Of a DNA stretch of 64,000 bases, positions 20,101-61,556 are shown one piece after another. The translations under genes were made by a program, and so were the position numbers. The notes under the pieces are model-generated. The model saw nothing but the letters and a program-made list of their open reading frames with translations. It was not told the DNA's origin and did not search any database. Source of the DNA: Gnetum montanum (lineage: Eukaryota; Plantae; Gnetophyta). Each line of letters opens with the position of its first letter. Position 1 is the first letter of the stretch. The stretch covers positions 31,256 to 95,255 of the forward strand of contig MNCI01001683.1 of assembly GCA_015680685.1 (NCBI GenBank), written 5' to 3'.

Positions 20101-20280
20101 AAAAATTTCCCTTAAGGGCCAAATAAAAAGTAGTTGGTCAACATCCAATAAGTAAAACCTTTCCTCAAACCAAGATAGACCAGTGTGACTACCACCTCAA
20201 CGGATGGACAACCATGTTCCATTTTTTGGATCTTCTCTTTCCAACTCAGTCATGGGGGAGATGGCCATCTATGCTAATGA
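14200..20280 (+). pseudogene. gag-pol of element 2, heavily disrupted
   Basis: PR: ALLDSGFSVNLI. RT: ISPLIIVPKKSGKWKV, MPFGLCNA, VFMDDF. INT: GHYVGRYMAIKILMAGYYWPTIFRDAHQFVQSCECCQ, EPFDIWGINF, TTPYHPQ. Confidence 0.92.
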
Positions 20281-22285: not shown

Positions 22286-25140
22286 ATGGCACTAAGACCA
22301 AAACGCCCACATGAAGGAGAACCCTCTCAACCAAGGGAGAAATGGCCCAAAGATGGAAGGGGCCAACATGAACAAGCTCAAGAACCACCAAAGGAAACTC
22401 ATGCAATGGGACCTCTTCATGAGGAGCCCAAAGTGGAATCTATTTGACAGATTCCAAAAGAAGAAGTGTCAATAGAGCAATCACAGCAATGGGAAGCACT
22501 GGGACCCATGCCAAGACTTGAAGTCACTTTAACTCAAACTTTCCTTGACAGTCTTGAGAGATTCAATGTTTAGTTCTCCAAGAACTAAACTTTAGGACAT
22601 TTCTAGAGAAAGCTCCAGCAAAAGCCAAAACACAATTGCAAACCTCTCCCATGTGGCCAATCATCACATCTAGTGAAGAATGGTACATGGGAGAGACACA
22701 TCTCTTTTGGAACAATAGAAGGCTATGGTCCACAATAAAAATCAAGGATATTCAAGTGTCCTACTCACCTGAGGCTATCGTGTAGGCACTAGGGTTGCCT
22801 GATATTGGAACACAGTTGGCAAAGTTATCAACACAAGGTGATCCTAAGGCCAAAAAGGAGTGGACTCAATGGTGTTTCAAGGTTGATCATAAGGAGTTCG
22901 ACATGCTCACACCAGCAGAGTGCATCTACTTCAAGATCGACACTTATCACATCAATCCAATGGTGAGGCCTAGCAAGGCAACTATCTTTTCCACATGAGC
23001 ATGTGCCACTCTAAGCAGGAGATTTCCTATAAACCTTCCATAACTGATCTATTTAAAGATTGAAAAGCATTTCAAGGAAAATGAATGTGGTAGGAAAACC
23101 CTACCCTTTCCATGCTTCATTTGGAAACTCTACAAAAAGTGTAGGAATCATTTGCTATGCCAACAACACAATTAGACATGCTCCTTTGGCTTCATGGTCT
23201 GAAATCATGAAAGAAAAGACACCTACCATAACTAAAGAAGAGGAGCAGTTGCCACCTCCATCGCCTACTCAAGAAACAACATCAGAGGCTTGCGCAGCCA
23301 TTAAGCATTTTCACAAAATCCGAAAGTATCTTTTGCATGAGTAGGAGTAGTGTGGAAGGACGAGTAGTGTGGACCCATCTATGTATCAACTAGCAATGAG
23401 TCACCTTAATGAGGTAGCTCAAGCAATTAGTCAAATGAAAGGGGATGGACCAATATTCCCTACCCAATGAATGCAGTTGCCTGTGAGGTCTAATCCCAAT
23501 GCTTGAGAGGTGACGATGTCATTATCACACTACCATTTATTCCCAGAAATCTCTAGGAATTCCATCTCTTTCTGGATGCATTTGGAGGAAGGTAAAGGGG
23601 CCATTGGACTGGTGATGCAACACCAAGGCCAAGAGATTGTGTCTGAAGTAGTTGATGACCACATCATTGAAGCACTTAATGCACCTATGACATCTATACC
23701 AAATGTATCTGCACTTCGAGATGTGTAGATGTTTGTAGGCATGGTTAGCAAAAAATTGAATGAGGCCCAACATGAAGACTTGCTAGATTAACTAGTAGGG
23801 ACTGGGCAACTAATTCTAGATATCTTTGATTTTTCATATAACATCACCACAACCTAGTGGGAGTTACTGGAAGTAAAGGGCAAATGCATCATCTTGAAGG
23901 GGCAACTTGAAATGGCTCAAGTACAAAATCAACGCTTGGCCACGAAGGTTGCCAAATTACTTGCTCGTCTTGCTGATCTTGCATTCCTTATCCTGACAAT
24001 AACTAGAGATGAAGCTTTCCAATAACTTTAAGAATGATTCAAGAAGGTTGAGGAGAAAGTCGTGGTGGCCATCTTTAACCACTCTATATCATAGGTGAAG
24101 ACATATTCAATTCAGAAGGACTTGGTTTAGATGCACCAAGAGAATGAAGAACTGACCATAGAAAATCATCGCCTACACAATGTTGATGTCAAAAAAGAAC
24201 AAATGCAAGAATTCATTCATCAACAGTAGGAGCAGCTAGCTAGGATGAATATTGAATTAAGGAAATTGGCCACATAAAATTGAAATCTGTCTATGGAAGA
24301 AGGTCATGGCTTACACCAAAAATTTACTATTAAGATTGTCGACTATAAAAATGAAGCTTTGAAGTTTTAAAAAGTTAAAAATTACTATAGAGACCAGGTT
24401 GGCTTGTAGAAGGAAGTAAATAAGAAGCACATCTAGATGGGAAAGGCAAAAATAAATGAAGCTCTCCAGCAACTTCAACAAGGAAAAGAAGTATGGTAGT
24501 CCATCATTCATGGGATTGATGTCTACAATAAAGCAGAGATCTATTTAAAGGAGTTGCAGATAGAAGAGATAATAGAATACATGGAGTGGACCAATCTATG
24601 CTATGTGAACTTGGCAATGTTGACTACTGGACAACCATAGTCAGAGTTACAAAAACAAGTGGCTAGCTCATATTTGCTATGCGAGGCAAAGTTTAAACAC
24701 CATAAAGACACTAAGCAGAAGCTTGAGACTACAAATGTTAAACTCAAAGTTCTCAAAGCATGATTCACAGATCAACGATCAACTGTTGAGAACTTAGCCA
24801 AAAGAATGAATGATTATCAGGAGCTGAAGGATGTAGTTAGAGTGTTCGACATTAAATGCAAACAATTTTCCACCTAGTTTATCAATGTAAAGGAGTTGTT
24901 TCCAACAATCCCATGTCCTTGGGATGTGCTCGTTCCAAGCCACATTGGTGAAGCTGTGTGGACGATGCATGATCCTCGAAGTAAGGAGAAGAAAATGAAA
25001 GCATTGCTAGATGCTTTTTGCCTCCCACTAGAAGTTGCAACAACAAGAAGATTGCCATAGTCACCTCGATTACCGCACATGCTTGAAGCTAATGAAGGTT
25101 CCTCAGAACCTCAAGAGCCACCACCACCTAGGCCTGTCTG
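22286..25140 (+). pseudogene. Extra 'env-like' ORF of element 2 (plant transposon accessory domain plus long coiled-coil region), degenerate
   Basis: ATG at 22286 (MALRPKRPHEGEPSQ). Motifs IKDIQVSYSPEAIV*ALGLPDIG, RRFPINLP*LIYLKI and TLPFPCFIWKLYKKC resemble Athila accessory ORFs. E/K/Q/L-rich heptad-like stretch at ~23850-24850. The end coordinate is approximate. Confidence 0.7.
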
Positions 25141-25382
25141 ATCTTCTCCATCAAACTTCATGCCATCAAGGAACATGCTATCCAATTTTGAAGAATCATG
25201 TCATGGTGTTCAATTTTGTGTCATGAACACCATCATTTTTGTAATGTGTTGATCCGTACACTTAGGCATTCTATTTTTGTCAAGTTAGTTTATTTTGTTT
25301 GTGAAGGGTCAATCAATAATCTCATACCTTCCCAATTTTGTAAAAGAACTCAAGGATGGGTTTTTATTCAGTCATAGGGGTA

Positions 25383-26275
25383 TGATGAGTCACATTTTTG
25401 GCCGCGTCAACGAGGCCTTTTCAACTGGGTCTTGTCGATGAGGCCCCATCAATGCATAATTTCATGTATTGATGTATCATTTGCTTTTTAGCTATAAATA
25501 CATGTCCACTAGCCACATTTATGGCAACGAGATTTCAGTAGTACTAGAGCTCTTCCAACTTATTTATTGAAAAGTTAGAATATTTCTCCTAAGTGCCCGC
25601 AACAAGAGTCATTGAGTGTATGGATCTTTATTCAAGCATTGTTGTACTTGAGCATGACAGTGTGTACGACAATAAAGATGAACTTTGTGATAAACCTTGT
25701 AGCAATCTAGATAGATTAAATATTTTATTTATGCATTTAATGTTTTCAATTAATTATTCAATATTTTCTAGTAATTAAGCTAATTAATGTAATTAAGAAA
25801 GATAATTTAGATAGATTAAATACATAAGTATGACCACTTCGAGCATAACATGTATTCGCTTGGTAATCCTAGCAACATTCTTGCTTGGTACACCCAGTAG
25901 CGTAGTGCTTGGTAACCCAACAATAGATACATGGGTTCAGGACATGTACAGAAAGTGGAACCAAATGCTTATGTTAGGACTGCTTAGGTATTAGTTAATT
26001 AGTTAAATTAAATTAGCTAATCCAATTACTTTATCTCTCTTTAAACACCAAAACCATAAAACATAAAACTATAAAAATCATATGCCTCAATTACACTTAA
26101 CCATACCATGTGCTTCATAAGTGTAATTGGGAAGACAATGAATGACCTTAGGGTAAGGTTCACTACCTAGAAGACTAGTGCACCGAAAACTATAAAGTCT
26201 GTGAAATTCAATCGAATCTCACATGAACGCCTGTGATTCATATGACTGGGCGTAGGGGTACCTCGTTGCTCATCA
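25383..26275 (+). repeat. 3' LTR of element 2
   Basis: Direct repeat of 13107-14062 (the ORF-track peptides 13379 and 25593 are near-identical), preceded by cataggggta. Confidence 0.92.
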
Positions 26276-26280
26276 ATATA

Positions 26281-28600
26281 GTCCTACTTATTAATTATGT
26301 AACTCAAAGACATCATGAATATGGGAAATTCAACAAAGTACACATGTACTTTAGACATGTCATTTTGACCTTAGAAATCTTTTTCTTCTCCAACATAAAA
26401 CTTTAATTATAGGCAAAATTTTAAAAAGTAGATAGATTTAAGAACTAATTTTTAAAAAGAAAAAAATAACATAAAATAATTGAATTTTTATTTAAAATAT
26501 TTGTATCATGTATTACAAAGTAAGCTCCAAAAATGCAAATGCAAGTAAGAAACCACAAGAAGAGCTTTAGATGAGTGAACATGGTTTTTGGCCAAGCAAT
26601 GTTTTCAAGAATTAAAAAAATCTTTCCAATGCTTTTTCAATTTCCATGGTGGTACCTTTGTATAGTGTGTAAGTATAAACACACCAAGAATAGGACAACC
26701 AAGAAAGGAGCGAAAACAATTGAGAGTGAGAGTGAGAGTGATGTTAATCTTGCAAAGCCAAATAAATAGCAGTAAGGGCATCCCATCAACAATGGCATCA
26801 ATAGTAACAAGCCTTCATGAAGAAGAAGAAAAAAATATTGCATCCCATGGCATCAATATTAGCCTCAATTATTAATTATGTGAGTCAAAAATATTACATG
26901 AACTTGTTCATAGCTATCTATCCTACAACATTATGATTTTGCAAGACACTAGTTTTGAACTCATTACATGATTCATATTGCTCATGGGCCATGTATTGAT
27001 TATAGGGTTGTAGGATAGATAACAATGTTATGAATTTGATGTCATCAATGATTAAAACTCAACAAAGTATACTTGTATCTTAAACCTAGGTTCTAACCAA
27101 TGGAATCTTTCTTTTCTTTAACATAAAACTTTGGTATAGTCCTACTTATTAATTATGTAACTCAAAGACATCATGAATATTGGAAATTCAACAAAGTACA
27201 CATGTACTTTAGGCATGTGATTTTGACTTCAGAAATCTTTTTCTTCTTTAACATAAAACTTTAATTATAAGAAAAATTTTAAAGAGTAAATTGATTTAAG
27301 AACTACTTTTTTAAAAAAAGGATAACATAAAATAATTGAACTTTTATTTAAAATATTTGTATGATGTACCACAAAGTGTAAGTTCCAAAAAATGCAAATG
27401 CAAGTACGAAATTGCAAGAAGAGCTTTAGATGAGTGAACTTGCTTTTTGGCCAAGTAATATTTTCAAGAATTTAAAAAATATTTCGGGTGCTTTTTGTTG
27501 TTTCTGTAGTGGTACCTCCAATACAATGTGTAAGTATAAAGTATAAACACACCAAGAAGAGGACAACTAAGAAAGGAGCAAAAGCAATTGAGCGTGAGAG
27601 TAACAAGGGCATCCCATCAACGATGGCATCAGTAGTAACAAGCCTTCATGAAGAAGAAGTAGAAGAAAAATATTGCATCCCATGGCATCAGTAGTAGCCC
27701 CAATTATTAACTATGTGAGTCAAAGATACTACATGAACTTGTTTATAGCTATCTATCATACAACAATATGATTTTGCAAAACACTAGTTTTGAACTCATT
27801 ACATGCTTCATATTACTCATGGGTCATCATGTATTAATTATAGGGCTATAGGATAGATAGCAGTGTTGTTCTCAATTTGATATCACCAATGATTGAAACT
27901 AACAAAGTATACTTGTATCTTAAACCTAGGTCTTGACCAATGGAATCTTTCTTTTCTTTAACATAAAACTATGGCATAGTCCCACTTATTAATTATGTAA
28001 CTTAAAGACATAATGAATATTGGAAATTCAACAAAGTACACATGTACTTTAGGCATATAATTTTGACTTTAGAAATCTTTTTCTTCTCTAACGTAAAACT
28101 TTAATTATAGGCAAAATTGAAAAACGTAAAACTTTAATTATAGGCAAAATTGAAAAAAGCAAATAGATTTAAGAACTTTTTTTAAAAAAAGAATATTATA
28201 AAATAATTGAACTTTTATTTAAAATATGCGTTAAGTATCACAATGTCTACGCAAGCAGGAAACTGCAGGAAACTGCAAGAAGAGCTTTAGATAAGTGAAC
28301 TTGCTTTTTGACCAAGTAATGTTTTTAGGAATTAAAAAAATCTTTCGGGTGCTTTTTCGGTTTCGTGGTAGTAGTGTTAAGTATAAACACAGAAAAAGAG
28401 GAAAGAAAGGAGCGAAAGCGATTGAAAGTGGAGTGGAGAGTGAGAGTGAGTGAGAGTGAGAGTGAGGTTAATCTTCCAAAGCCAAACAAACTGCAGCAAG
28501 GGCATCCCATCAACAATGGCATCAGTAGCAGTAACAAGCCTTCAACAATGACATTAGTAGTAGTAACAAGCCTTTTCGAAGAAGAAGAAGAAAATAGCAG
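26281..28600 (+). repeat. Tandem ~835-bp units containing the B3 promoter and first codons. Unit A = 3815-4033 + 13044-13106 + 26281-26859; unit B = 26860-27694; unit C = 27695 into the gene
   Basis: Each unit begins tagcc(t/c)caatta...tatgtgagtcaaa and ends with gtataaacac...gagagtgagagt...caagggcatcccatcaac(a/g)atggcatca...aacaagcctt...gaagaagaag, which is the 5' end of the B3 gene. Confidence 0.9.
28382..28387 (+). promoter_or_regulatory. Candidate TATA box of the B3 gene (copies at ~26674 and ~27534-27547)
   Basis: TATAAA ~130 bp upstream of the first ATG, followed by a GA-rich leader; conserved in all three repeat units. Confidence 0.5.
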
Positions 28601-29435: not shown

Positions 29436-32400
29436 ACCATGTTTAACGAATTTGCCTTCCCTTTTGTTTTTTTTTTGTTTTTTGCGTCTGTAATTGCTTA
29501 ATTGTGTGAATTTTTCGAGTACCAACTGTATATGTGATTAAGCTTAAACAAGCTTTCTTATCTCTGGTTAAACTTTAAAGATGGCTGGAAGCTAATGCAG
29601 AATCTANNNNNNNNNNNNNNNNNNNNNNNNNNNNNNNNNNNNNNNNNNNNNNNNNNNNNNNNNNNNNNNNNNNNNNNNNNNNNNNNNNNNNNNNNNNNNN
29701 NNNNNNNNNNNNNNNNNNNNNNNNNNNNNNNNNNNNNNNNNNNNNNNNNNNNNNNNNNNNNNNNNNNNNNNNNNNNNNNNNNNNNNNNNNNNNNNNNNNN
29801 NNNNNNNNNNNNNNNNNNNNNNNNNNNNNNNNNNNNNNNNNNNNNNNNNNNNNNNNNNNNNNNNNNNNNNNNNNNNNNNNNNNNNNNNNNNNNNNNNNNN
29901 NNNNNNNNNNNNNNNNNNNNNNNNNNNNNNNNNNNNNNNNNNNNNNNNNNNNNNNNNNNNNNNNNNNNNNNNNNNNNNNNNNNNNNNNNNNNNNNNNNNN
30001 NNNNNNNNNNNNNNNNNNNNNNNNNNNNNNNNNNNNNNNNNNNNNNNNNNNNNNNNNNNNNNNNNNNNNNNNNNNNNNNNNNNNNNNNNNNNNNNNNNNN
30101 NNNNNNNNNNNNNNNNNNNNNNNNNNNNNNNNNNNNNNNNNNNNNNNNNNNNNNNNNNNNNNNNNNNNNNNNNNNNNNNNNNNNNNNNNNNNNNNNNNNN
30201 NNNNNNNNNNNNNNNNNNNNNNNNNNNNNNNNNNNNNNNNNNNNNNNNNNNNNNNNNNNNNNNNNNNNNNNNNNNNNNNNNNNNNNNNNNNNNNNNNNNN
30301 NNNNNNNNNNNNNNNNNNNNNNNNNNNNNNNNNNNNNNNNNNNNNNNNNNNNNNNNNNNNNNNNNNNNNNNNNNNNNNNNNNNNNNNNNNNNNNNNNNNN
30401 NNNNNNNNNNNNNNNNNNNNNNNNNNNNNNNNNNNNNNNNNNNNNNNNNNNNNNNNNNNNNNNNNNNNNNNNNNNNNNNNNNNNNNNNNNNNNNNNNNNN
30501 NNNNNNNNNNNNNNNNNNNNNNNNNNNNNNNNNNNNNNNNNNNNNNNAAAAGTCTTAAAACATTCATGCATCTACAAAATTTCACATAAGAGCACATATG
30601 AACAATCATGAATCCATTGTGTATATGAAAAAAATTCTAAAATGAAGAAAAACTAGAACAATTTTTAAATTCATTAATACTATTATGAAAAAGGGCACTC
30701 TTACATACACAATTTTGACCTCACTAAAATGAAGTTCCATAAAGAGATGTTCAAATAAGAGAATTGCAAATCTACACATAAATAATACAATGCATTAAAG
30801 AATGCTCACCAAAGCCTTATGGACAAGAGGAGAAAAATTCTCAATTTAACTGACATAAGCAATCTAAGTTACATGAGCGAGGAACTTTACTAGATTCAAA
30901 GCTCATCTAAGAAAAGATTCTTAGTATAACATAATAGAAATATTTAGTCTAGGCTATCCAAAACTCCAAAATTTCAAAGTAATCAATGAGGTCCTCAACC
31001 ACATATAGAACCTTCATAAGAGGAGTAATCAAGGATGTAATAGCCCAAGTAGGTTTAGCCTAAATTCAGTATGTTCAAAAACTATGAACTCATGAACCTA
31101 ACTCGTTGAAGAGAAGAATGGTTAAGGTCAAGGCCAAATAATTATATAAGCATTTTTAACAAATCAACACAAGCTAAGAGAATCACTAGAATGGAAACTC
31201 ATGTACAACCTAAAAATTAAACGGAAAGGAGAAAATAAGACACAAAGTTTGAACATAGGCAAATAAAAAAAAACCCAAGACAAGAATATCTTAAATCAAG
31301 CCTCTTATGAACCCTAAAATAATTGTAATATAAGTACACCCCAAGATATATAGTCCAATTAGAACTTTATAATTCAACATTACCCACCAAAATCGAATCC
31401 ATAACTTAGAGTTTTTAAATCAAGAGTCTTACTACTAGGCTCATCTCATTGTTAATCGAGACTCTTATATACTAATGCAATAATAACCCATATAAAAACT
31501 AAATTCATTGAAGAGAAGAATGATTAAGATCATCTCAAAAGCTAAAATTCCCAAAGATGTTGATTCTTGTATGCACTTTGAAAGCTCACATTCCATTCAC
31601 CTGTCCAAGATGTGGTTTTCAAGATAGATAGGGAAGTGAATTTAATAAGCCTAAAGTCAAAGTGATAGAAGGACATATTTACATATGGAAATACAACAAA
31701 AACAAGTGAAAGTAAGAAGATAAAGTTCAATTTCAAGAAAAGAAAAAGATTAAGTCAAGCAAAATGAACTCTTTTGTAACATAGGAACCAAAGCCATGTA
31801 ATGTCTATTTGGAATTTTTTGCCACAAAAGATAAGATATGAATTTTCCTTATTTTTCCTTTTAGAAAAAGGTTGGTGAACAAATGTAATTAAAGTATGAC
31901 TCTAATCTCTTGTGTCCCTTGAATTTTCTACCTAAATTTTCATCAAATAGGCTTGTCCCATCATATTCTATTATGACCTCATCTTTTGGCTATATATATG
32001 AGGTTAAAATATCATTGTATAGATGTAGAATCAATATAAAAGATTGAGCTACAAATTTCTCTCAAATTATTTCATATTTCATGTTCCACATTTCATCATA
32101 TCTCCATTAAAAATTAGTTTTCAATTTTGAATATCCATCTAATCTACTTTTTTTATCACCCAACATTCAACATCAATTCCCAACAATCCATCAACAATTT
32201 TGAATTTCACGTATTCTCAATTCATCATCCCTAACATCTCTATCAAAGTTTTCACATTAATTTCTCTCAGGTGTGGTCCAGTAGCAAATCTAATAAGGTA
32301 AATTCACTACAACTCATGGTTTACTTGTGGTCTACCACTAAGACTTGTAGTGCACTTGTGATTAACCACCATGAATCATGGTTTTCAATAATTCAAATTT

Positions 32401-33329: not shown

Positions 33330-33965
33330 TTTTTTAATAGAAATTCAAATAAATAATTAGGCAAAACACAATTAGAAGTGTCTTTATAAATTTTTTTGGA
33401 AGATTTTTCAAAAGAATATTTGTGACACTTTATTTAAATTTTGGAGAACTGGGAGGATTAAATTAGAATGGAATGTTGCTTGGATAGTTTTGCTACCAAA
33501 GAAAAAGGATGCAATTAATATTAAAGATTATTGACCTATCGACTTATGTACTTTCTAGAAAATTTGTTCAAAACTTCTAATGCTTTGATTACAAAAGGAG
33601 ATCCGTTATTTAGTTGCTAAAGAACAAGCAAGTCTTGTAAAAGAGAGACACATCTTAGATCATGTGCTTCTAGTGCATGAGATTCTTCATTCAACTCATT
33701 TTAAAAAGAAGCCCAACGTTATCTTAAAGCTCAATATTTTAAAAGCTTATGATACAATCTATTGGAGCTAGATGAAAGTTGTGGTACATAAAATGACTTT
33801 TCCTAATCATTGGATACAAATGCTTGAGGGTTGCTAATAGTGATCTAGATTTTCCATTCCTATTAATGGACATCACTTTGGGAATTTTTCATTGTCAAAT
33901 AGATTATGGTAAGATGATCTTATTTCTCCTTTATTTTAGCCACGGAGGGTTTGGAAGCATACTTG
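33330..33965 (+). mobile_element. Degenerate L1 LINE reverse-transcriptase fragment
   Basis: LLPKKKDAINIKDY*PIDLC...KEQASLVKERHILDHVLLVHEILHS...VILKLNILKAYDTIYW. Confidence 0.8.
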
Positions 33966-38600: not shown

Positions 38601-41600
38601 GTCCACAGGAAGCAGGACACATACAGATAGATATCTTGATGCACTCGCAAATCATTTTGTCTAAAAAAGTTGTTCTCTCCACCCAGATTCCTTAACGGTT
38701 TACAAATCAAACACATTTCAAAACAATGCATTCCATCTCAGTGAACTCTTTTTACCTAACTAATTTTCAGAGAATGAAATCGATAAGGCATGAAAGGATA
38801 AAACCATCAGAAATTGATGCATCAAGGAAGGTATGATCAAAGAAGCCTATCTCAACAATAGGAGAAAGAAAAAAAGGAAAAGGCCAACAAAAAATGACAG
38901 TCCTACCCTTTGTCGTCAGAGCTTCAGAAATAATGGGTTATGTGCAGTAAAGAGAAGGGTTCTCCCTGATCTAGAAACCAGTGGTGCAGATAAAATCTTT
39001 CTTACCAACTCCCAAAGATGATAGAGAGAACCTTGAATACCTAGGTGTCTATCAAATCCAATGTACTCATGGGACACTCTACCTAGGTAAAAGTGGAAGA
39101 CCAATTGAACAGAAAATCAAAAAGCATCAAGCAAACATCAGATATGTCAAGAGACCAAGAGAAGCTGCAGGAAGCTAAAGTCCTAGTTAGAGAATATAAT
39201 GAAACCAATAGAAGAATTTGTAAGGCATTTGAAATCAAGATATACAAGCATAATGTAGACAAAATGGTGGCTATGTACCTAATCAATGCCGTTTGTCTAT
39301 GACCCCTTCTTTATTTTAGTCTCATTATATACATCCCCTCATTTTAGTCTCACTTCATTATACCTGAAGATGGTCTCAGTAGAGACCAAAACGTTGTACA
39401 TTATGTCCATTAACAATGAAGGCAATAAAAATTGAATTCACCCTTGTGATATCAGCCTATTCCTAACCTTGAATTACTGCTTTTCAATCTCACTAGTTTC
39501 AATGGCTCGGACATTTGAGTTCCATTCTATATTCTCCAACTTGCTCCAACCTCTTCCTGCTGTCACACTGTCTCTGAGTTGTAACCATGACAATCCTACA
39601 CATGCCAAGCCAAAAAAAGAAAAAAGAAATGGAAGTTGTGCCCAAACTTGAAGTCTGAATTTTTTAATTTTCCTTCCTAAATGAAGGGCCACATTTAATA
39701 GCAATGAAAGTCCAATGCACATTCACAGTTTCAAGACTTCATTCATAGCTTGAATGTGCGACTTGCTGGTTGACAAAGCAACCCAAATACTAGTTAAGCC
39801 ACCACCTCATTGGCAAAAGAAAACAACATAATAATCAATATTCCAAGTCATCCTATGGCACCGAAAGGCTACGTATGTTTTATTTGAGTCATCAGGCATT
39901 TGCTTTGTTTTAGACTTTAAGAAGTTCAAGATGTAATTTTCTCAATAGTACACTAAACAAAAAAAAAATGCTTTCATTGGTACAATAAAAAATATGTAGA
40001 TTTTTATCTATAAAAACATAAATTAGATTTTTTCGAATTTCACCTTTAGAACTAATTAATTACCCTTAATACTTATTATAAACACTTTTTTCCAGTTTTA
40101 TTTGAGCTGTGTTAACAGAAAAACAATCTCTAATAAGTTAATCATATTATTCTTACATAGTTATATTTGTTGCAGTATCTGCTCAAATGAATTACACTGG
40201 TTGTATCCTATTGGTCAAGCTATTTGAATAATATATAGGAGATATGAGTTAGAATTTTTCTAGTGCATTAAGTGGATGTGCTAGAATGGTTAGAGTAATG
40301 GTGATGTTAAATGATAGATTATGTGTTTGATCTACATTTGTAATTGGTTTGTCAATAAATTAGTAACAAATTCAATTTAAAACTAAGGCCCTGTTATACC
40401 TATGTTACTAATAAAGTTGGAGTGCTTTAGTTTCTTTTGTTTATTTATTTATTTTAAGTTAAAGAAGACTAAGGAAATCCAGGTTCCACAATGGCTAGGT
40501 CATAGAAAAATAAAATCATTCATCATCTAATATAATATTTACGAAATCTTCAACTGCACCATAGAATGTCAAATAACGAAAACTTTTATTCCCTGTCAAT
40601 GTCTAAGAGGCCTATTTCTATGCTCCTTTCATCTTCAAGGATTTGTGTGGTTCCCTCCAAAAATGTGTCAAGTCCCCCTAGAGGATTAACGCTACTAGCA
40701 CAAGTAATCTTTGAGCCTTGGAAGCAAAGAAACTGCAGAAATTTTAAAGAAATAGAAAGAAATCTAAATATAGGACAGTGGTTAGTAGTAAAAAAGTTGG
40801 AAAAAAATGTGAAATATAAAATTTTACTTGACTGTCTACATCTTTGAACATTTTGCTAAACTAGAATTAGAATTGACAAATTATGAATCAAAATGTCCTT
40901 AGTACTCCTAGTACATCATATTGTATTGAGAACGATAAGTTGTAAGCATTTGATTCATCACTAGTTTATAAGTAAATGAAACTAAAACTGAAAAGTCATT
41001 GCATCTATTAGACTCAAAAGAATCTATCAATCAAATCAATTTGTCCAAAGTACATCTGTATTTTTAATGTCGAATGTGTGTAATAATCATGTAGTTTGAA
41101 CACATCCTCAATGTATTGCCCTAACACCAACAGTGATATATTAAATAATTCATACAAAATTCTACTTGCAATATTCCATTTGCATCCTAAAGAGTCAACT
41201 ACATAACACAAAAAATTACCTCATTCATCTTTTATTACTTGCAAGAGACATAGCCTACGTAATGAATCTTCTTGCTAAACATTTTCCCATCTTGTAATTT
41301 TTTTAACTATAAGATGATGAGCGCCCATACTTAATTGTTAATCAGTGGTAGACCCTTTGCCCTTCCTCATCAGCTCAGTCGTGTTCCCCCACTCACTACC
41401 CAACCCCTTGCTCTCGGAGAACCTTTCTTCCTCCAAGGTCTAAGAGGCCTCTGTTTCAGCCACGACCTACGTTAGTGTAGTGCTCTTGCCCATTTCCAAC
41501 TGCTACATGTTTTCTGCCATTAGTTGCTTAGTCCAGCCTGATGTCCTTTTACCAAATCCTCCATCCATTGGAGATCCCTACGTCTCTAGGAGGCTACATC

Positions 41601-44600
41601 TTGTTGTGCCTCCTTCCACAAGTCCTACCACTGCAATTGCCACTCTACCCTTTCTTCCCGTTGCGCTTGCTCAACCACTAGGCGACACACCACTTCAACA
41701 TCTAGGGGATCCGCAAGCTATTCGGGTGCCATCTCCCTTGCGGACCCAAGTAGGTCGCCCTTGTTCAGCCTCGAAGAGGAGCCACCAACAACCCCCGCAC
41801 CATCCGGCAATGTCCATGAACCCTGATCTCTCCCATGTCATTGCTAGTAAACCAGCCATGGCTCTAGTGGCAATATTGCCATGCCCAACCTCCATAGCAT
41901 AAGGATCAACCCTAGGTATCGCCTTGGCCATCGTATTTGTAGGGAATCCCAAAAAAATTGAGGCAAATTGATGGGAGTGTCGTGCTTCATATGTCGTAAG
42001 AATGCGAAATGAACATCTACAAGCTTGTGAGGATACCCCAACTAGACGAAGTACCACTCCACCAAGACCGCTGCTTCCCGCCACATGCCCACAAGCGCCA
42101 ATTTGTGGATGTGTCCGCTAGCCATATGGGGAATCGCTCCTTTAAAGAACTCCACCACATCCATCTAGGCCTGGGCCACTGACGCTATGATCTCCCCCTC
42201 TACCGCAACTCCCAGCACCTCCACCAGCGCCTCCACAATAACCTTGATCCGTTTGCCCTGAAATTACATTTTGTTGCCCACCTGTGGAAAAAGTTCGCAA
42301 TGGAAAGCCCCAATTCTCCTTCAATGCATTTCAGCATGTTGGCTCAACGCATTTGCTCCACGACCGCCCACAAGTTGACATCTCCCACAAACTTCGTCCA
42401 AGTCAACTCAAAAAGGCACCTCTGTCCCATGGCTGCGATTGCTTCAACCCACAACTAGCATCCAACCTTGGCAACCCTTGATGGCAAAAGCAACGTCTAT
42501 CCACGGAAAATAGGGAGTTTCTGGTTTTCCAAATCGCCCACAATGTGGCAAGCGCGGCAAAGTCCCCGTTAATGATCATGATTGGCACGATGTTTGCTGC
42601 ATGCCAAATAGCCTACACAACCCAACACCCGTAGATAAAATGTAGTGTTTCAGGCTCCACACAACACAGAGGACAGCTGTTGTTCATGTGCATGCCCTGC
42701 TCCTGCAGTGCCACTCTAAGGGGCAACACCCTATGTTTAACTAACCGCCTAAATGCTTTGATTTTTCTGGGAGCCAACCCCTCCATACCTCGGTCCATCC
42801 ATCCTCAGGCGGATACAAGGACTTAATCACCTCTTTCGGGTGTTTCTCTAGCAAGTCCAACGTTTCCATTGCTTTGGCATGGCTGCACATCTTTCTCCAA
42901 AGCTAGGAGCTCCTTGCATCGGCCTCCCAGCGGCTATATTTCTGCCTTAATAGTTGTACCCACAACGCCGCCCCATTTGTTTGTTCGAGAAACCTGTTTA
43001 CCAACCTATGCAATCCCAGGGTGACCTCGTCGCAAAAAGGTAGAAGGCCAATTCCTCCCGCCAATCTTGGATGTGCCATCTGGGCCTAGGACACCAAATG
43101 GAGCTTCTTGTCTCCTTTTCCCGTAGACCACACAAAACCTCTGATGATTTGGTCAATTTTCTGAAGCATGCCACCCAGTGGAGCCACTATCAATGCCATG
43201 AACCTTAGTCGTCGCCATCAGCATTGTCAAAGCAAGCATCATCTTTCCTTTGCAAGACAAAAAACGACCAGTCCAAAGCATAGTCTTTGCTTGCAATCAC
43301 TCAACAAGGCCCATCCATGTCCTCTTCCATTGCCAGTCAAAGATTGGCATTCCCAGATAATTGTCTTGCAACCGACCTGGCAAAATCCCCAACATTTGAA
43401 CAATTTTTCCTTCCACAGTCCCCTTTGTGTTGATGAAGTTGATGGTCGACTTTCCTTTATTTATCTCTATTTATCTTGAGTCCCACCTCACGTTGCATTC
43501 TGTCAAGTGCCCTCATCAGTGTTGCTACCTACGACACAACCACTCTAGCAAATATGATCATGTCATCAGCATAATGCACCCCTAGACAATGTACCCCAGC
43601 AATGTTTAGCCCCTGCAACCCTTCAACCAAGCAATAGTTTTGAAGCAAATCCATCACCACTATAAACAATTGCGATGATAGGGGGTTCCCTTGTCGTAGC
43701 CCTCTCTCCGGTCCCTAGAACCCTCAGAGCCTCCCGTCAATATCAAAAGAGTATCGACTGTCTCTTTGCATTTGCATACACAGGTTAACAAACCTGCGGT
43801 CGAAACCCTTCAATAGCATGACTTCTCTGAGAGTCGTCCAACTCATTGTGTCATACGCCTTGGTGATATCCATCTTAATGCACATTCCCAAGAATTTGGC
43901 CGATTTGAGAGAGTGTAGAATCTCCTACAACAGTAGTACTTGATCTTGTGAAAAATGGCCTTTAACAAACCCAACCTGATGCTCACCCACCAGTTTTGTC
44001 ATTAGTGGTGTCAAACGACCAACTAGCATTTTTGAGAAAAGTCACAGCATAGTGTTGCAAACACCAATGGGCCTGAAATGACCCAGCAAAGTCAGATGGG
44101 GCACTTTGGGCAATAGCATGATCCACTAGCAATTGATCTCTCTCCAAACCTGTTGCCAGCTAAGCCTGCGATTGAAAGCATCTAGCAGGTTTGCCTCCAT
44201 GATGTTTTTCGAATGCCCAAAAGAATTCAATGGGCCACCCGTCCGACCCTGGCACCTTGTTGGCCTACGTGGACCTCATTGCCGTTAGCAACTCCACCCT
44301 TGAGAATGGTCGTAGCAAGCATTGGTTATCAGCCCTTGAGAGGACCTGCAATATCGGAACCAAGATTCTCTCTGAATCTCACCGTCACTAGACCTCACCC
44401 CAAAATTTGCACAACTCCTCTAGCCCCCGTAGGCCATGATTCGACCCTTCTCCACCTACACCCTCAAGTAAATTCTGTATCTTTATCTTGGAAGCCCACT
44501 ATGCCTTGGCTGTGGCAAAGAAAAAGTGTGTGTGCTTGTCTCCTTCCCGCAACCAAGACACCCAAAACCATTGCCTCCAATAGCTTTCCCTCCTCCCTAT

Positions 44601-47600
44601 CAAGCTCCTAGAGCTCCCACTCCTCCCTCTCAAAGTCTACCCCCATTTCCTTAAGTCGTTGGATTTCTCGTAGTCTCTCCTACACCTACTTGTACCCTTA
44701 GAAGCTGTATTTTTCGATTGTATCCTTGGCCTTAATCTGTTGTTTGAGTAACTATAGGCCATTTTTTAGAAACTCTCTAGGTTCCTGCTCCCCTATATAG
44801 TTCTACCAAATATTTTACACCAACAGCCTCAACCATGATTTGTCCAACCAGGTACATTCAAAACAGAAGGGCCAGGGAACCTAGTCCCAATCATATTGAA
44901 ACCAACCAATGATCTAAAGCCTATCTCCCTTTCCCCACAACCTTAAATGCCAAATTCCAACATGAGTCCTGAACTAAACTAGACTCTGTCAATCATAGAT
45001 TGCATGCAATCTAGCCTTCTTCTCTAATTACTCCATGTATATCTACAACCAGCAATTTCTAGGTCCACAAGATCATAATCGCAGATGAAATCTGCACAGT
45101 CTCCAACCCTAGGGAAGTCTATACTATCCCCCCCCCCCCCCTTGATTTTTCCCAGTAATACAACTGTTGGTTAAAATCCCTAAAAAGCATCCACTTGGTG
45201 GTGTTCAAGATCATAGCAGCAACCTACCTCAACTCCTGTATGCATGCCTCCCAATTCTATCCCTTGTAGATGTTGGTAAGCTAGAAATCCTCCTGAAGCA
45301 TGTGGATAGTCTGACTCCAGTTGGAATCGCCCACTGGTCTAATCAGAACCTTAGCTAGGATTGCCAATCCTCCTGTGTGACCCCTACATGTCACCATTTG
45401 GAAATGTCATCCCTCCCATTGCAACAACTTCTACTCTGATGCCTGCAACTTTGTCTCCTGCAGACATACAATGTCGCATCCCTCTTTCCCAACCATCATT
45501 TTCAAGGTATTTTGTTTATACGAGGTACCCTATCCCTGACAATTCCAAGAGAGGACTTTCATGGGGAGACAGATGATCATCTATGATACACCTCCCTAAG
45601 TGTTCGTTGCACCCCCAAATCAATGTCTAGTTGTGTGGACTTCTTCCACACTGCCGACATGCCACAACAACAAACCTTGCCCCCTGGTGGGGTGACCACG
45701 GTACCCTCGTTACTCCCACACTTTGCGCAAATCCTTCATTTTTGGCCAAGATGACCCCTTACCCAAGGTAATCCAATCCCCCAGAGAGGGTAGCTCCAAC
45801 CCCTGCACCTCTAAAGTAGCTGACCATTTAGCCGATAGGGTACAAGAAGATCCCGAGGGCCCTCCACTTCCCTCTAGCCCACCATGAACAGCAACCCCAA
45901 CATCCCTACCCTCTGCTGGCAGGTTCACATCCTCTCCTACAACTTTGGGAGGCAGCAAATGACCAACCTGCGGAGCCAGCCCACCCTCATCAAACTTTGC
46001 AGCAAGCCACGGATTCTGGAGCTAGTCATCGTGGTTTGCTGGCTGTCCCATCTTCAAAACCTGGCCTTTTCAGCCGACCAAATTCCATCCTAGTTGTTGC
46101 ATTGGGCCCTACAGCCAAATTCAACAATCTGCTGTAGGATGCCCTTTCCCGCATGTCGCACATGCAAGCGGCATTTCCCCGCAAACCCTCGGCAGGTTTT
46201 CAAACTGGACTTTGATTTTCTCTTCCCCCATGACCATGTCCAGTACCACCTCACTCACTATGTCCTTTGACCCTAAAGACCTCATACCCCATATTGTCCA
46301 TTGACACAGTAAAGGCATCGAATTTGATGAATTTGTTGAATAGGCCAACCATGGATTTCAAAAATCCCAACGCCTAGTACTCCAAGGGTAAGTCAAAGAT
46401 CCAAATCCACACCGACACACAATTGAACAAACTCGCATCACGATGTGCACCCAACCTCCAAGGTGCCAAAGCTAGATCACAGGCCCGATAGAACCACGGT
46501 CCCCCCAATAGCACCCTTTCTCTATCTACCTCCATCTGGAAACTAAAAAGCAACCTATCATCGGCAAGACTCCTCACCTTGACATTCTCTAGACCCCAGG
46601 CCACCTTGACCCATCACCCAATAAGGTCCATCCATGGGCACATGCCTTTAGACACAAATTTGCCTAACAAGCTCCTCCCTAACATTTTTAGGACCTCCTC
46701 GAGTGGGTGCCCCACCTTAAGCCACATGGTAGGCCCTTCTCTTGAGTAGGCTTCAAATTCTTCCTCTTCCCCCTTCCTTCACTGAAACCCTAACCTGTGC
46801 TTCGTGCCCATCTTCCTCTCTGCCCGCCTCCACTCTGGCTCCTTTCCCCTCTCCAGCTGCCCAACCCTTCAAGATCCCCTTGCATGAGCCAAGGTCTACA
46901 CCAAATGTTGGGTTGTGCCTAGCCATGTCAATGCTCTTGTTGACCCTCGAGGACCCCCCATCCACTTGCCTAGCCCCCTTTGCTTGCCCGCTCATGTTGC
47001 CTCCTAAATCTTTGTTTCAATAGTCGAAGATATGTTCATAGAACTATGATTTTATGTGTGCTGGATTTGAATATTGTTGATGTGCTTGTATACAACTTCT
47101 ATGATTTGGTACTAATTTGGTTTTATATCTATGAATTGATAATGGTGATGGATTTGAGTAGTGTTGATGTATTCATGACTTGTATGATGAATAGCACTGC
47201 TTGTCTCTATTGGTTCTATGTTATGTTACGTACACATGCTAGATATTGTTTAAAGGGTTTACGAATTATCTGGATCATGAGTAATGCTAGCATAAAATCA
47301 CAATTCAATGCATGAGGCAATGGTTGGATTCCTACAAATTCATTGTTGACTTAGGATCTGACATGTGTTTTTGATTGGATGAATAGCCTATGATTCTTTT
47401 TTGTGATTATGAGTTGTAGTAATGTGTGTTGTGTCTTATTATGGATGTATGTACTATCTACTAATTTAGCATCTATTAATGGAATGAACAAAATGAATGC
47501 TAAGTAGAGATGAAGTTGAAATGTTGTATTATTTGTAAGGTTGCTATTATGTTTTGATTGTTCATGTGTTGCATGACCTATGTATTAGAATGATTTCTTA

Positions 47601-50600
47601 AACCACTTAGAACATTTCTTTCTAAATTGTAAATATTAGTGCTGGTCTCATGTACATGCTTTGTTGTGTGTTTATACAAGTTTTGGATCCATCATCCCTA
47701 GGTCCTACTTTGGGAATAAGCAATCAGATTTGGGAAGAAAAGAAAATGACTCTTTATGTTATGACATGGAGAGGGCACTTATAATTCTATAGTCATGGAG
47801 GAGGTACTTATTATTACATCATAATATGAGCCTTGAAAGATCATCATGCAACCTTTTCAAGCAACCAATGCTGGTTCTAGGTTATTATCTAGAATAAGTA
47901 TTTAAACTACATGAACATTGAATACATCTAGTATACCCTAGATTTATTGCTACTAATCTAGTGTACAAAACTAATTTGTCAAACAAATCCTTTGAGTCTA
48001 TACAAATGTAATTAAATTTCATTTTCAATAATCTAGCAAATACATAATGAATTATGAAACTAAAACTAAAATTTTATTACATTCGTAGACCCTCTAGATC
48101 TATTGGATAGTAGAAATATACATGCTATAAATTTTGAAAACATCATTTAGAAAATTACCAAGTGTTCTTAGAAAAATTTAGAACAACTCAACCAAATTTG
48201 CAACTATAATATCCCCATCTATGTCTAATGTGTTCTAATGCAACACATTGCAAGAAAATGTGATATTCATTTTCAATGCTATTTGTATTGCATAGTTGAC
48301 ATATTCGTTCTTCATGAAGAATTTTTAGTCATCTACATGTTTCAACTCTCAAATGAGGAGATTCTATTCGTGCTCTATTAATTGTGCATTATAAATGATG
48401 AGAAATAGTAACAAATAACTAGTTTGCCTTTGAATTAAGACCTCCCCTGATACTATTCAAATAAAAATGTTTTTTTTTCCTTTTTTACTTCTCCATTCCC
48501 AAAGTTTTTGAAATATTGCTTGTTTTACCAAATTGTGAACTTGGTTAAGATCAAAATAGATAATATACTCTTGAATATTCTATTTGTTAAGCCATAGAAA
48601 TCCCTCATGAAGCCATCATTTATCATGGGTTTCCATCATCATTTTTTTGGAATATTCATCTAATGAAGATACAGAAAGATTATGAGCATAGGCTATAAAA
48701 TGACAAATGGCTTCAACCTCTAACAACATCATCTATGCTTTAAGTAGCATAATATCATATTGTGTCTATCTCTTCACTTTAAATTCATCAAGTTGAAAAA
48801 GCTTTTAAATTTCTTGTACTTACTTCCAGCACTTATTTAATAGAGCAAGACCCCATATAACACACCCATAAAGACTAATAACTTGAACAAATGGCATGAT
48901 AAAGTTATCTTCAAATATCCCAAGCTAAAATAGATTTCTTCTTATATATTCTTTTTAAAGCAAATAAGGTTTTCATACTACTTGCAAATCTTTGAGTAAT
49001 GCACTGATCCCATTTGTAATTGCAGGAGCATTCTAGGCCAAGATATTTGAAAACAGAAATTATGTCCACATGTTCATGTCCTATAGTAAAATTGTATATC
49101 TTATTACACTTGCCACAAATCATGATTTTTGTTTTTTAGACATTACTTATGATCAACCTATAATTATTCAAATCTAATGTCTCATTTCTTAAATCACCTA
49201 TAATCATCTATTACTTATCTTTACCCTTTTTATTTCCATCATTAAGCTTTTTCTATGATTTTTCCTATATTAGTGAAACACCCCATTTTAATAATTCAGC
49301 GTACAACCTTTCTACATCTATTACTATTTCAAAAGCTAACCAAATAGTCTCACTTATTACTTCTAATGTGAGTTATGGCACCTCCAAGTTTGTATGGCCA
49401 ATTTCTTGCGTTACAATATGATGAAAAAGATTTTATATAAAGTTTGAATCTCTGAAAATGGTAGATTACTACTTGTAGAGATCTTATGCAATAATTTACA
49501 AAAATTTCTTGGGTCTTGTTTTATTATTTTCAAAATAGAAAAATGATGATTTGAATCACTTATTTGAACATATTGTTTACATCTCTATGTGTACTTGTGT
49601 AGTTATAAATTCTTTTAGTATACTTGGAAGTTTTGTAACTTTTATTCTAACATCTTAAAAAGATCCAGACTATGATTTTACTTCTAGGAGGTGAGATTCA
49701 CATAGCATGTCTTCAAAGCCTTCAAAGTCCTTTTACATGGTATTAGAACTCATAGTATTAAAACAGCTTTTGAATCTCTGAAAATGGAAGATTGCTACTT
49801 GTAGAGATGTCATGCAATAATTTCTGAAAACTTCTTGGGTCTTGTTTTATTATTGCACTACCTTTTTATATTATTGGGTCTTGTTTCTTGCCTTACGCTA
49901 TCACTTACACTTACAAAAAACTCTTGAATCAAATAATTTTAAAGGAGAAGAGTAACTTATTGGAAGAGCTTGATAAATGAGAGGTTTACATCGTGACACC
50001 ACGTCTTTGAAACACACTTACCACTATAATAAAAAGGTAGTGCTACAGGCCATCCAACCAACACAAAACTTTGATGGAAAGTAGGTATAACATAACAATG
50101 GGTCATCACCCAAAGGCTCAATGCCTACCTACTAAGGCAAGGTCCTACAAGGGTCGGTGGATGAGCGAAAGCCTAACCTCTTTTTGAATAATTGCCCCTA
50201 GGGTTGCACGTAGGTCTTACAATTAAAAAAACACAACAATGCTTTAAGCAACATTAAAACTCGCAACCGATTACACACAAAGCAACAAACTTACTGGTTG
50301 GGCTACACTCACATTGGTAAAGAGATAGTGTTAGAAATAGGTAGTGGTAGACAATATCTAATAGTATTGAAATTATTTTTAATTATGTTCAAACCCTATG
50401 GATCTATTGGACCAGTTTAGTTTCAGCAATTTTGCATAATACTTGTACACTTCAGCATATAACCTACTAGGATCGAACCTATGACTTAAGGATGGAAGTC
50501 ACACACCTTAACCAACAAGTTAAACAATCTCAAATGAAACAAATGTTGTTATGCCCAAGGAGTTTATTTGACATGTGCTTAAATAAATTACGTCTTAATA

Positions 50601-55944: not shown

Positions 55945-58620
55945 GGGTAAAGCCTTCTTGTATGAAAAATGCATAAATATGTGGGTACCATGCACGTGGA
56001 GCTTACTTGAGTCCGTATAATACTTTATGGAGCTTGTAAACATGATTTTGTTTTCCTTCATCAATGAAGCCTGGTGGTTGTTCCACATAAACTTCTTCAT
56101 TAAAAAATCCATTGAGGAATGTAAAGGCCACATCTAGTTGATAAACCACATATCCAGCTTGTGCAACAATGGCAAGAAAGATTCTCACGAATTCCATCCA
56201 TGAAACAGGAGCAAAGTTATCATCAAAGTCCCTACCTTGCTATTGGAGATATCCTTTAGCGACTAGGTGTGCTTTGAATTTTTCTATTTCACCATACTAA
56301 TTTCTCTTAATTTTAAATATCCATTTTAAACCAATTATTGGCTTACCAGGTGGAGGAGGAACTAGGCTCCAAGTATTGTTTTTGTGAATTTGTTGCAGCT
56401 CTCTCTCCATGGCAACAATCCAATGGGTATCATGCGCAGCTTCGTCGACTATGGATGGTTCCAACAAATCATCATTGCTCCCCCCATCGGTGTAAGTAGC
56501 ACAAAAAATTCATCGTCTACAATGATGAAGAGAGCATTTTCAATGTCTGCCACATCCTGGGTTGAGTGCACATTGTTCTCCTTAAAGTGACTGCAGGTCC
56601 GCCTATTGAAATTCATATCTAGCATTTGTGAGACTAGATAATAGGTAGCTAGCGAAGATGTGGAAGGAATCTACCGTAGAGTGGACAGTGTTGATGTAGA
56701 ATATGTCCTAGAGGGAATGATTTGTGATGGCGTTGCTGCAAAGGTTTGGCTTGTAAGAGAGAATAATATCTGATGCCACTGCTACATAGTATTGGCATGA
56801 GAAACATTATGATTTTTATCTCATTGTGGAGCAAGGTTGAAAATAGTTTTAGATGGGATTGATTCCAAAAAATTAGGAACAAAATGGTCGGCCGTGGTAC
56901 AATCTATGTTCAAATTCAGGTATAGACACAAGGTGGAAAACATTGTGTTTGGGTAGCTAGGATCCCTGCATTATCAGTTGTAAAATAATGGATTACAAGT
57001 GGCCAATGAGCAAGTGTGTATATTTGGCCTTTGCTATGTGGGTGTGTAGCAGGAGATGATGACGCAGCAGAAAAATTAGGAAAAATAATACCTTTATGGC
57101 CATGCCAGTGTTGCAAATTAGGATCAGAGAATACCTGGCCAACAAGTTTGTGAAACAGAGGATGCATTTGCCAACAAACGGAAGGAAGAGTGGGGTGTAT
57201 TTGTGGCTTGTGTAATTTGCAATGATGATTGTGGCTGGGATGGTTGGAGAGATGAATTGAATTATTATATTGTTGCGGCAGACAAGTGACGGTTCCTGTG
57301 GATTGAGGCAATGGCAGAAAAGTTTTGGATGGCTAAGTAATGGAACCTTGTCTTCCCACGTTATCATCAATTATGCTTTTCCGTTGCTGTTGCAAAAAAT
57401 CAAAAATATTAGATCTATTGTGACTATCGCTGCTGTTGGTAATGGATTCACCATGGCCTACTAAATCACGTTGATGGTAGGCACAAGACATGTTGTATTG
57501 CCACCACGAGCTATTCAGATTTTCTTAATTGTATTGCCACTTTGATTTTCTACTTCTACCTTGAATTCTTTAAAAAATCCTAATGTTTGATCTTTTCATT
57601 TCATAAAATACCCCCAAGCAAATCTTGAAAAATCATCCACTATTATTAACATATATTAGTTTTTACCTAGGCTCAATGTTGCATGGAACCACATAAATCC
57701 ATACAAACTAAATCTAATTTTTCTTGAGATCTATACTTTCTAGGAAACGGCAACCTTGTAATTTTTCCTAGTTGACATATGCCACAATCATGATTATTTG
57801 GCAAAGAAAAATTTGGCATACCTCTTACAATTTCTCCTTTTTGCATGCGGTCCATTGAGCCAAAGTTGACATGTCCTAACCAAGCATGCCATTACCATGC
57901 TATGTCTTCAATGACAGTGAGACAATGAACATCCTTTTGCATCTACAACTTGTACATCTAATTCTTGCTTATAGGGATAATGGCAATACTTTTATCATCA
58001 TTAACCTTAGAAATTTTACAAACATATTTTTCAAATTCAACATGATACCCATTGCAACATAATTACCCCACAATAAATTCTTTGAAAGATTTGGAACAAA
58101 ATAGATCTGGGAAATAACATATTTGTTACCTTGAGTTGTTGTGAAGGCAAGTGATCCAATCCCGACAATGGTTAACTTCTTCCCATTACCTATAGTTACC
58201 TTTCAATCATATTTTTCCAAGTTTGAGAACAATTTCTTATTCCCTATCATGTGATTGCTACACCCACTATCAACATACCAAATAATATGCAAATTTCCTA
58301 TTTATGCACCATGCAAGCCTCAAAATTCCAGCCGAATTCTTCTCACTTTTTTGATCACGTCCAGCACTCTAATGCATTGGGAAGATTCATGCAAACAACA
58401 ACAAATTCAAGTCCAGCACTTCACCACCAACGAACATTCTCACCCATGGCACATGAACCAGCAGAAAACATGCCTACTACTACCAACTTTGGATATGAAT
58501 CCATGTTAGTAATAAGCCCAAACCAACGACCAACTTTTTCCACATATCATATACAACCCTAGCATGATCATAAAGTTATTACTTTTCATATCTTTTTTGC
58601 ATCATCTTCATCAACATCAT
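55945..58620 (-). mobile_element. Ty1/copia internal region, minus orientation (protease, partial integrase, linker, RT N-terminal half)
   Basis: WYVDSGCSNHM (~58270); WLGHVNF...CGICQLGK...LDLVCMDLCG; IIGLKWIFKIK...FKAHLVAKGY; YQLDVAFTFLNG...LYGLK*APRAW. Confidence 0.9.
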
Positions 58621-58639
58621 CATTCCATACTACATTTTA

Positions 58640-61217: not shown

Positions 61218-61556
61218 TTAAAGGAAATAAAGAACTTTGTTACAACAAGCACACTCTTGTGAAACTCTCTTACTTCTATATCTCTTCTATATTCCTTCTA
61301 TCTCATAAATGAATATGTGCTGCTACAATTATATAGGCCTTGATCTCCCAAGAATAGATTTGGAGAGATAAGCATGAATCTTGGAAATCATGGGAATGAT
61401 CCTTATCATTTTATTTAAGGATCTTTTTAACATAGGACGAAACAAACATGAAATTGGATAAGAATTACATAAATAGGATCTCATCTTATTTAATATAGAT
61501 TTATAGCTGAGATTTATCTAATTCTATTGTGGAACATCTAGTCATCATATTCCATA
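61215..61556 (-). repeat. Inverted, partial copy of the copia LTR (reverse complement of 60814-61155)
   Basis: agcttaaaggaaataaagaactttg...gtcatcatattccata is the reverse complement of the first ~342 bp of the LTR, with scattered substitutions. Confidence 0.92.

Follow-up and report, generated by a model that had tools for sequence, protein, structure and literature searches.

What occupies the usual place of RNase H in a decayed L1 long interspersed nuclear element (LINE) of Gnetum montanum? The element lies on the minus strand, at about 41300-47000 of a 64,000-nucleotide (nt) stretch of contig MNCI01001683.1 (positions 31,256 to 95,255; GenBank assembly GCA_015680685.1) that was analyzed as a whole and is called the window here. 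Plant L1s have been described as having two open reading frames (ORFs) and, optionally, RNase H (PMC9033089, PMC5203782), and their subclades are Llb, LINE-CS, BNR, PUR, Cin4, Karma, and nubo (PMC9033089). In the L1 of the window, 1.09 kb of sequence continues past the zf-RVT domain, where RNase H usually sits. This segment, which we call the module, is old protein-coding DNA. [quoted passage not shown]

A coding module in the place of RNase H

The element has the DUF4283 ORF1, the ORF2 with apurinic endonuclease, reverse transcriptase (RT), and zf-RVT in that order, and the A-rich end of plant L1 LINEs, and it differs from them in the 360-codon non-RNase H module after zf-RVT (Table 1). Its RT, with 7 stops in 266 codons (P0009), was about 30 to 37%, and in no case more than 38%, identical to 17 database proteins, the nearest found, and a tree of RTs gave it no supported placement. 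The GC content is 0.44 to 0.51 across 41340-47000, compared with 0.28 to 0.36 in the background. It steps sharply from 0.30 to 0.64 at 47000, near the ORF1 ATG at 46995, and a second sharp step, at the TAA (41340), closes the GC-rich block; both flanks are AT rich. Rfam gave no matches across 40500-47800.

The locus had been singled out in a reading made from the sequence alone, which claimed that no RNase H follows zf-RVT. Both searches bore this out. Pfam detected no RNase H in the three minus-strand frames over 42200-42600, nor in P0001 or P0002, and a hidden Markov model (HMM) made from seven RNase H-bearing plant ORF2 C termini and run unfiltered in six frames matched zf-RVT and no RNase H. 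Among the 17 related ORF2s, 7 have RNase H fused after zf-RVT. L1s without an RNase H domain rely on host RNase H for RNA removal.

The sequence-only reading had described a single degenerate frame of about 360 codons from an ATG at 42430. A coding path of that kind is present, but it uses three frames, not one. From the ATG, which stands in a strong start context (GCAGCCATGG), to the final TAA at 41340-41338, the three-piece path contains two frameshifts and 11 internal stops in 361 codons, a stop density like that of the RT. Single frames of the segment are worse, with 20 stops in 364 codons for the ATG frame and 14 stops for the frame of the motifs compared below. Using a codon model trained on 600 codons from this L1's own ORF1 and ORF2 frames, we found that the proposed frame was favored in all four segments, with a composite score of 55.4 versus 5.7 ± 6.7 for best-of-three-frames shuffles (0 of 500). 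An amino acid model concurred on the proposed frames (30.2 versus -3.5 ± 4.5; 0 of 500 shuffles). A search in which frameshifts could be placed freely recovered the same path, starting at 42430 with shifts near 42284 and 41523, and scored 47.1 versus 6.2 ± 6.0 (0 of 200 shuffles).

Three results weigh against the coding reading. Stop counts do not single out the frame (11 versus 10.9 expected; 612 of 1,000 shuffles), the antisense strand also scored above shuffles (39.9 versus 20 ± 6.9; 1 to 2 of 200), and the flanks did so slightly (0 to 10 of 200), with margins much smaller than the module's. The shuffle null is therefore lenient, because antisense strand and flanks exceed it as well. At 42344, three DNA runs carried another letter at depths of 102.6 of 109.6, 125.3 of 125.3, and 184.7 of 184.7, and the first stop of the path (TGA 42346) was read as TGG by 8, 8, and 6 contigs in three DNA runs.

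Table 1. Coordinates of the L1, its module, and the LTR-element ORF used for comparison
Feature	Position	Strand	Basis or remark
L1 ORF1, N-terminal part, decayed	46287..46995	-	ATG 46995 read by eye; DUF4283 at 46631-46287, Pfam E 1.8e-15
ORF2 start, apurinic endonuclease N terminus	45434..45562	-	Pfam Exo_endo_phos E 3.7e-6; tblastn of plant ORF2s
ORF2 reverse transcriptase, decayed	43448..44086	-	Pfam RVT_1 E 4.4e-24
ORF2 zf-RVT	42604..42774	-	Pfam E 1.6e-5; own HMM iE 1.9e-7
WAIWKTRN motif and linker	42431..42541	-	WAIWKTRN at about 42541-42518
Extra module piece 1, 55 codons from ATG	42264..42430	-	Codon model; one TGA at 42346
Extra module piece 2, 246 codons, 7 stops	41524..42263	-	Helical core with both motifs, Gly/Ser linker, heptad-like helical region
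Extra module piece 3, 60 codons, 3 stops	41338..41520	-	Heptad-like end, acidic stretch, basic RKGKG tail, TAA
Candidate L1 tail: 33 AT-rich nt followed by an A7 run	41298..41337	-	Sequence
Extra ORF, Ty3/gypsy non-chromovirus element (comparison)	22286..25140	+	Broken by stops and frame changes

At the 3' end, a stop about 35 bp before a poly(A) had been reported. An A run at 41304-41298 does lie 33 nt past the TAA, but it has only seven A's. A search for a target-site duplication found none that was convincing; the best candidate, a 12-mer with a single mismatch, did not lie at the ends where one would be expected. The 3' boundary of the L1 is therefore soft, given the seven-A run and the lack of a convincing duplication. 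At the other end, the L1 is adjoined by a repeat of very high abundance that contains short tandem units (47126-47600; depth up to 1675) and has many loose ends at 47126 and 47583; this repeat may be the 5' untranslated region (UTR) of the L1 or a separate element. The window also holds part of an RT from a second L1, of an unrelated family, at 33382-33936 (plus strand), with a third-position T frequency of 0.46 and very different codon use, and no match to the module was found near it.

Whether the module was translated as a third ORF or as part of ORF2 depends on how the linker is read. The sequence-only reading opened a third ORF at 42430; a former coding region does occupy the RNase H slot, but the linker is compatible with both a separate ORF and a fused ORF2 tail. 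After WAIWKTRN, the first stop in the zf-RVT frame is a TGA at 42405, which gives an overlap of 28 nt with the ATG at 42430, and the tail of this frame, about 37 residues after RN, is close in length to the 35-residue tail of the RNase H-less P0023. The ATG frame has two TAG codons upstream of the ATG, its linker reading IFRG*TLLLPSRVAKVGC*LW, and the third linker frame stops at 42444. What counts against a separate ORF is that codon scores of -0.4, 0.9, and 1.5 for the three linker frames favor none of them clearly. We consider it likely that the module was a separate ORF3, with the chances of translation by termination and re-initiation, as opposed to in-frame fusion, a shade better than even.

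The most serious alternative, although we consider it unlikely, is that the module is family-wide yet an in-frame C-terminal domain of ORF2 that replaces RNase H. The element would then be a two-ORF L1 with the module on the RT protein, for example, as a chromatin tether. The module does occupy the exact place of the fused RNase H in 7 of the 17 related ORF2s, both linker stops are TAG, a codon that also accounts for 9 of the module's 11 internal stops, and by eye the ATG-frame linker is like the helix after W..RN of other ORF2s (P0017 gave the best local score, 23). However, this likeness did not reach significance (77 of 300 shuffles), and the three frames are not told apart by their codon scores. 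Fusion also requires one frameshift and two stop mutations within 85 nt, whereas the zf-RVT frame is already open to its own TGA with a tail of P0023-like length and the ATG at 42430 has a strong start context.

The module protein and the extra ORF of an LTR element

The module protein is predicted to consist of a helical core, a Gly/Ser linker, a heptad-like region at about residues 240 to 320, and an acidic and then basic tail. In a simple hydropathy scan, we found no envelope signature (signal peptide or clear membrane helix) in the module, and the best 19-residue hydropathy, 1.85, fell in a stretch with three glutamates. The label "env-like" that had been given to the Athila accessory protein compared with the module (the extra ORF of the LTR element in Table 1) was misplaced: that ORF is Transposase_32-like, not an envelope protein, and the L1 module has no clear membrane helix. 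A structural check that had been proposed for the module was run, but the single-sequence AlphaFold models were too poor for use (mean predicted local distance difference test [pLDDT] scores, 39.8 and 49.7), and fold searches with them returned only generic helical bundles. Helical inserts of Dicer and RIG-I (VIA matches; Z, 5.5 to 6.8) were at the generic-bundle level and were rejected as evidence. The best match among PDB sequences had an E value of 0.67, and of 97 pattern matches in metagenome contigs, none was confirmed.

Two motifs of the module had been aligned by eye with the extra ORF of the Ty3/gypsy element in the window (Table 1). Both motifs and their partners in that ORF are present, at spacings of 94 and 93 residues. 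The LTR extra ORF has a Transposase_32-like core at 22666-23175 and a long helical C-terminal part, and it matched PF20167 (Transposase_32) with an E value of 5.2e-5 and 23.6 bits, under the curated cutoff of 45. As for the wider likeness claimed between the two proteins, collinear blocks are present, but the BLASTP match was not significant and a reversed control came close. A two-motif test (43 versus 13.4 ± 6.3; 0 of 500) was circular because its probes were the earlier reading's own picks, and it was replaced by a free-block test of collinear ungapped blocks, in which 500 shuffles and, in two directions, 152 real decoys were compared. The three-block score of 79 was reached by 4 of 500 shuffles and by 1 and 1 of 152 decoys, and the four-block score of 96 was reached by 1 of 500 shuffles and by 0 and 1 of 152 decoys. 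The four blocks lie within six diagonals over about 130 residues, are near-collinear, and include both of the motifs first picked out.

Several results speak against this relationship. The two-block score of 57 was weak (15 of 500 shuffles; 1 and 6 of 152 decoys), the reversed module scored 58, 75, and 86 where the module itself scored 57, 79, and 96, local alignments of the module with the LTR extra ORF were equaled by 133 to 220 of 2,000 shuffles, and BLASTP gave an E value of 0.20. The pair of sequences had also been picked by eye beforehand. No Pfam family matched the module at E values of up to 10, the query being a single decayed copy, and protein searches with its main frame found 0 of 3,481 candidates and none among 1.84 billion representatives, with a query that was off-frame in its first 56 and last 60 residues and so of reduced sensitivity. 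Gymnosperm genome annotations appear to include many uncharacterized proteins whose motifs are similarly arranged.

Searches from the side of the LTR element gave little more. A protein search with the core of its extra ORF yielded 0 of 155 candidates, and of 111 pattern matches in viral contigs with the LTR RT, none was confirmed. Through the same RT, 80 metagenome loci were gathered, and of the 13 candidate ORFs scanned there, 8 were ATHILA and 1 was Transposase_32. Profiles built from four to six angiosperm-type ATHILA ORFs gave no match to the module and none to the LTR extra ORF of the window itself; because the latter fails them too, these tests have no power. We judge the chance that the module is homologous to the LTR extra ORF to be somewhat better than even, and it is plausible that the module is shared between LTR and non-LTR elements.

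A less probable alternative than fusion to ORF2 is that the module is real and family-wide but unrelated to Transposase_32/ATHILA, being a captured host gene or another kind of accessory protein, so that the likeness of the motifs is due to chance. It would account for the empty Pfam search with the module where the LTR ORF matches PF20167, for the BLASTP value and the reversed control that scored nearly as high, and for the module's failure to match ATHILA profiles. The profiles have no force here, however, for the reason given, and four blocks on six diagonals over about 130 residues argue against chance. The layout of core, linker, and coiled coil also fits the domain-plus-coiled-coil extra ORFs described from LTR elements (PMC4408406).

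The 13-kb Ty3/gypsy non-chromovirus element that carries the comparison ORF spans 13205-26275 (plus strand), with LTRs at about 13205-14062 and 25433-26275 that are 85% alike over 858 nt and a decayed gag-pol with its RT at 17611-18210. This RT aligns without an insertion of about 18 residues that is present in most metagenome relatives. A second, related gypsy copy (about 4444-11989, plus strand) is 67 to 75% alike to the first and retains a run of 162 RT codons free of stops; nothing in this copy was found to match the extra ORF. Right after the 3' LTR, 26200-28550 holds about three tandem units of about 850 nt, and related pieces lie at 3815-4034 and 13039-13106.

Proposed family membership, origin, and role of the module

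The module had been taken to define a recurring three-ORF LINE family. Its style is that of the L1 in which it lies. Third-position G was 0.40 in the module and 0.35 in this L1, compared with 0.20 in the LTR pol, 0.24 in the LTR extra ORF, and 0.18 in the second L1, and the synonymous log-odds of L1 over LTR usage were +0.078 ± 0.028 for the module and -0.054 ± 0.022 for held-out LTR codons. The claim that the module is GC rich like the rest of the LINE also held, its base composition falling within the L1's own spread (distance of module to L1, 0.066; L1's own range, 0.022 to 0.077; all 532 outside windows, at least 0.131). In run X1, 2,241 contigs were placed on the window, 1,601 of them less than 90% alike. 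Summed contig depth, which is not copy number, was 49 to 192 over the module, 49 to 172 over ORF1, 97 to 197 over the 3' part of ORF2, and 8.8 over the unique flank; runs X2 and X6 concurred with this pattern.

Two observations weigh on the other side: the bin 41027-41253, immediately beyond the A7 run, has high depth as well (192, 100, and 158), and no different copy spanning ORF2 and module was found among the 32 of 7,387 pieces listed. Thus, of the family claim, the multicopy segment and the L1-like codon style stand, but a second copy bridging the ORF2 junction was not found among those pieces. We consider it quite probable that the module is family-wide, its linkage to ORF2 across copies being inferred, and the arrangement of L1 and module is probably an L1 variant. 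In the literature searched, which left most subscription papers outside and did not cover Repbase, there was no plant L1 with a conserved module of about 360 codons after zf-RVT; PMC6338049, too, held nothing that bears on the matter.

These data also bear on whether the locus is a one-off chimera, in which a 3'-truncated L1 abuts a piece of another multicopy element's extra ORF. The listed pieces without a bridging copy, the short A run, the failure to find a target-site duplication, and the high 3'-flank depth are all compatible with such a junction. We nevertheless find it quite improbable. In composition and in its choice of synonymous codons, the module matches this L1 rather than the LTR elements or the second L1 of the window, and it is on the same strand and begins at the natural end of ORF2, with no tail or LTR between. 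There were also no loose ends at the junction among the 24 of 3,507 rows listed, which is a weak point. That the segment is merely a long noncoding 3' UTR with an illusory frame is scarcely credible, for although its stop density is not below that of shuffles and it has no database matches, the codon and amino acid signals are frame specific (0 of 500 and 0 of 200 shuffles) and the GC-rich block ends at the stop between AT-rich flanks.

Extra ORFs of the PMD, Transposase_28, and ATHILA types occur in LTR elements, often with a coiled coil and with unknown function (PMC6317226, PMC4408406). In the Athila, Ogre, and Tat elements, the role of these ORFs has been sought for a long time without an answer, and opinions still differ on whether they encode envelope proteins (PMC6317226, PMC11728184). 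Transposase_32 is related to ATHILA ORF1, with a nuclear location predicted for one Transposase_32 ORF (PMC11728184), and coiled-coil pentamers and many host contacts are predicted for the Athila domain (PMC13547354). Like the module, the Athila/Tat/Ogre extra ORFs (PF20167, PF03078, PMD PF10536, and Transposase_28 PF04195) lie 3' of the RT gene and encode 350 to 600 residues with a helical domain and then a coiled coil (PMC6317226, PMC4408406, PMC11728184), and weak collinear blocks connect the module with the window's Transposase_32-like ORF. Unlike the module, they are reported in these sources from LTR elements, and PMD also from Mutator-like elements (MULEs) and host genes, but not from LINEs, and the module has no significant profile match.

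Other systems are more distant. VANC of VANDAL/MuDR elements and host MAIN (PMD), for which structural homology is reported (PMC13547354), provide a model of a transposon-borne helical or coiled-coil protein that acts on silencing; they concern DNA transposons of eudicots, and their likeness to the module is one of functional model only. Accessory ORF3s of bdelloid rotifers (GDSL esterase and DEDDy exonuclease) are shared between retroelement classes and are an earlier case of LTR and non-LTR-type retroelements trading accessory ORFs from a common pool (PMC5408684), but these are animal elements with Penelope-like partners, and their enzymatic ORFs have another domain than the module. Additional L1 ORFs have been described as primate ORF0 and mammalian antisense L1 ORFs (PMC5203782). 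Those are antisense and mammalian, and ORF0 has 71 residues, whereas the module is in the sense direction, downstream of ORF2, and much longer. The TRE elements of Dictyostelium were considered as a three-ORF precedent and rejected, since they have two ORFs only (PMC5633606, PMC5006619).

A narrower form of our explanation, which we hold more tentatively still, is that this plant L1 extends about 360 codons past zf-RVT as a long-resident module of a multicopy family, an ORF3 encoding a Transposase_32/ATHILA-type accessory protein that was captured from an LTR extra ORF. The capture would have occurred long ago, because the codon style of the module now matches that of the L1, and its probable mechanism would be a template switch to the RNA of an LTR element while reverse transcription was under way. 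One RNA would carry ORF1, ORF2, and the module, and the module would be translated either after re-initiation at the strong ATG near the end of ORF2 or as an ORF2 tail. In the predicted protein, a helical core of about 190 residues would be followed by a linker, a coiled coil through which the protein oligomerizes, and a basic tail. Because the protein has no membrane helix, it might work inside the nucleus and not serve as an envelope. There it could bind host chromatin or silencing factors, so that the element stays active or its insertion is steered. By analogy with the proteins above, such binding is a possibility, if a doubtful one. The element would depend on the RNase H of its host to clear the RNA once reverse transcription is complete.

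To our knowledge, virus-like particles are not produced by LINEs. Should selection maintain the same module in a LINE family, it could not serve as a particle or envelope protein, since a module common to LTR and non-LTR elements would have to act on something that both face. A chromatin or anti-silencing role would then be testable in a simple L1 reporter, and the extra-module arrangement would be a new layout for plant LINEs.

Other features of the window

Assembly gaps lie at 4092-4309, 9016-9410, and 29607-30547. The first coincides with an 87-nt inverted pair (99%) beside single N bases, which may be an assembly artifact. Farther downstream, 55946-57113 and 58554-59783 form an inverted pair that is 82% alike over 1,230 nt; by eye, both arms contain pieces of Ty1/copia RT, and the DNA between the arms contains fragments of integrase and protease. 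Positions 60268-60783 resemble copia RNase H, and 60813-61557 forms a near-perfect hairpin with 348-nt arms, 92% complementary, and a 49-nt loop, resembling a miniature inverted-repeat transposable element (MITE) or a fold-back element.

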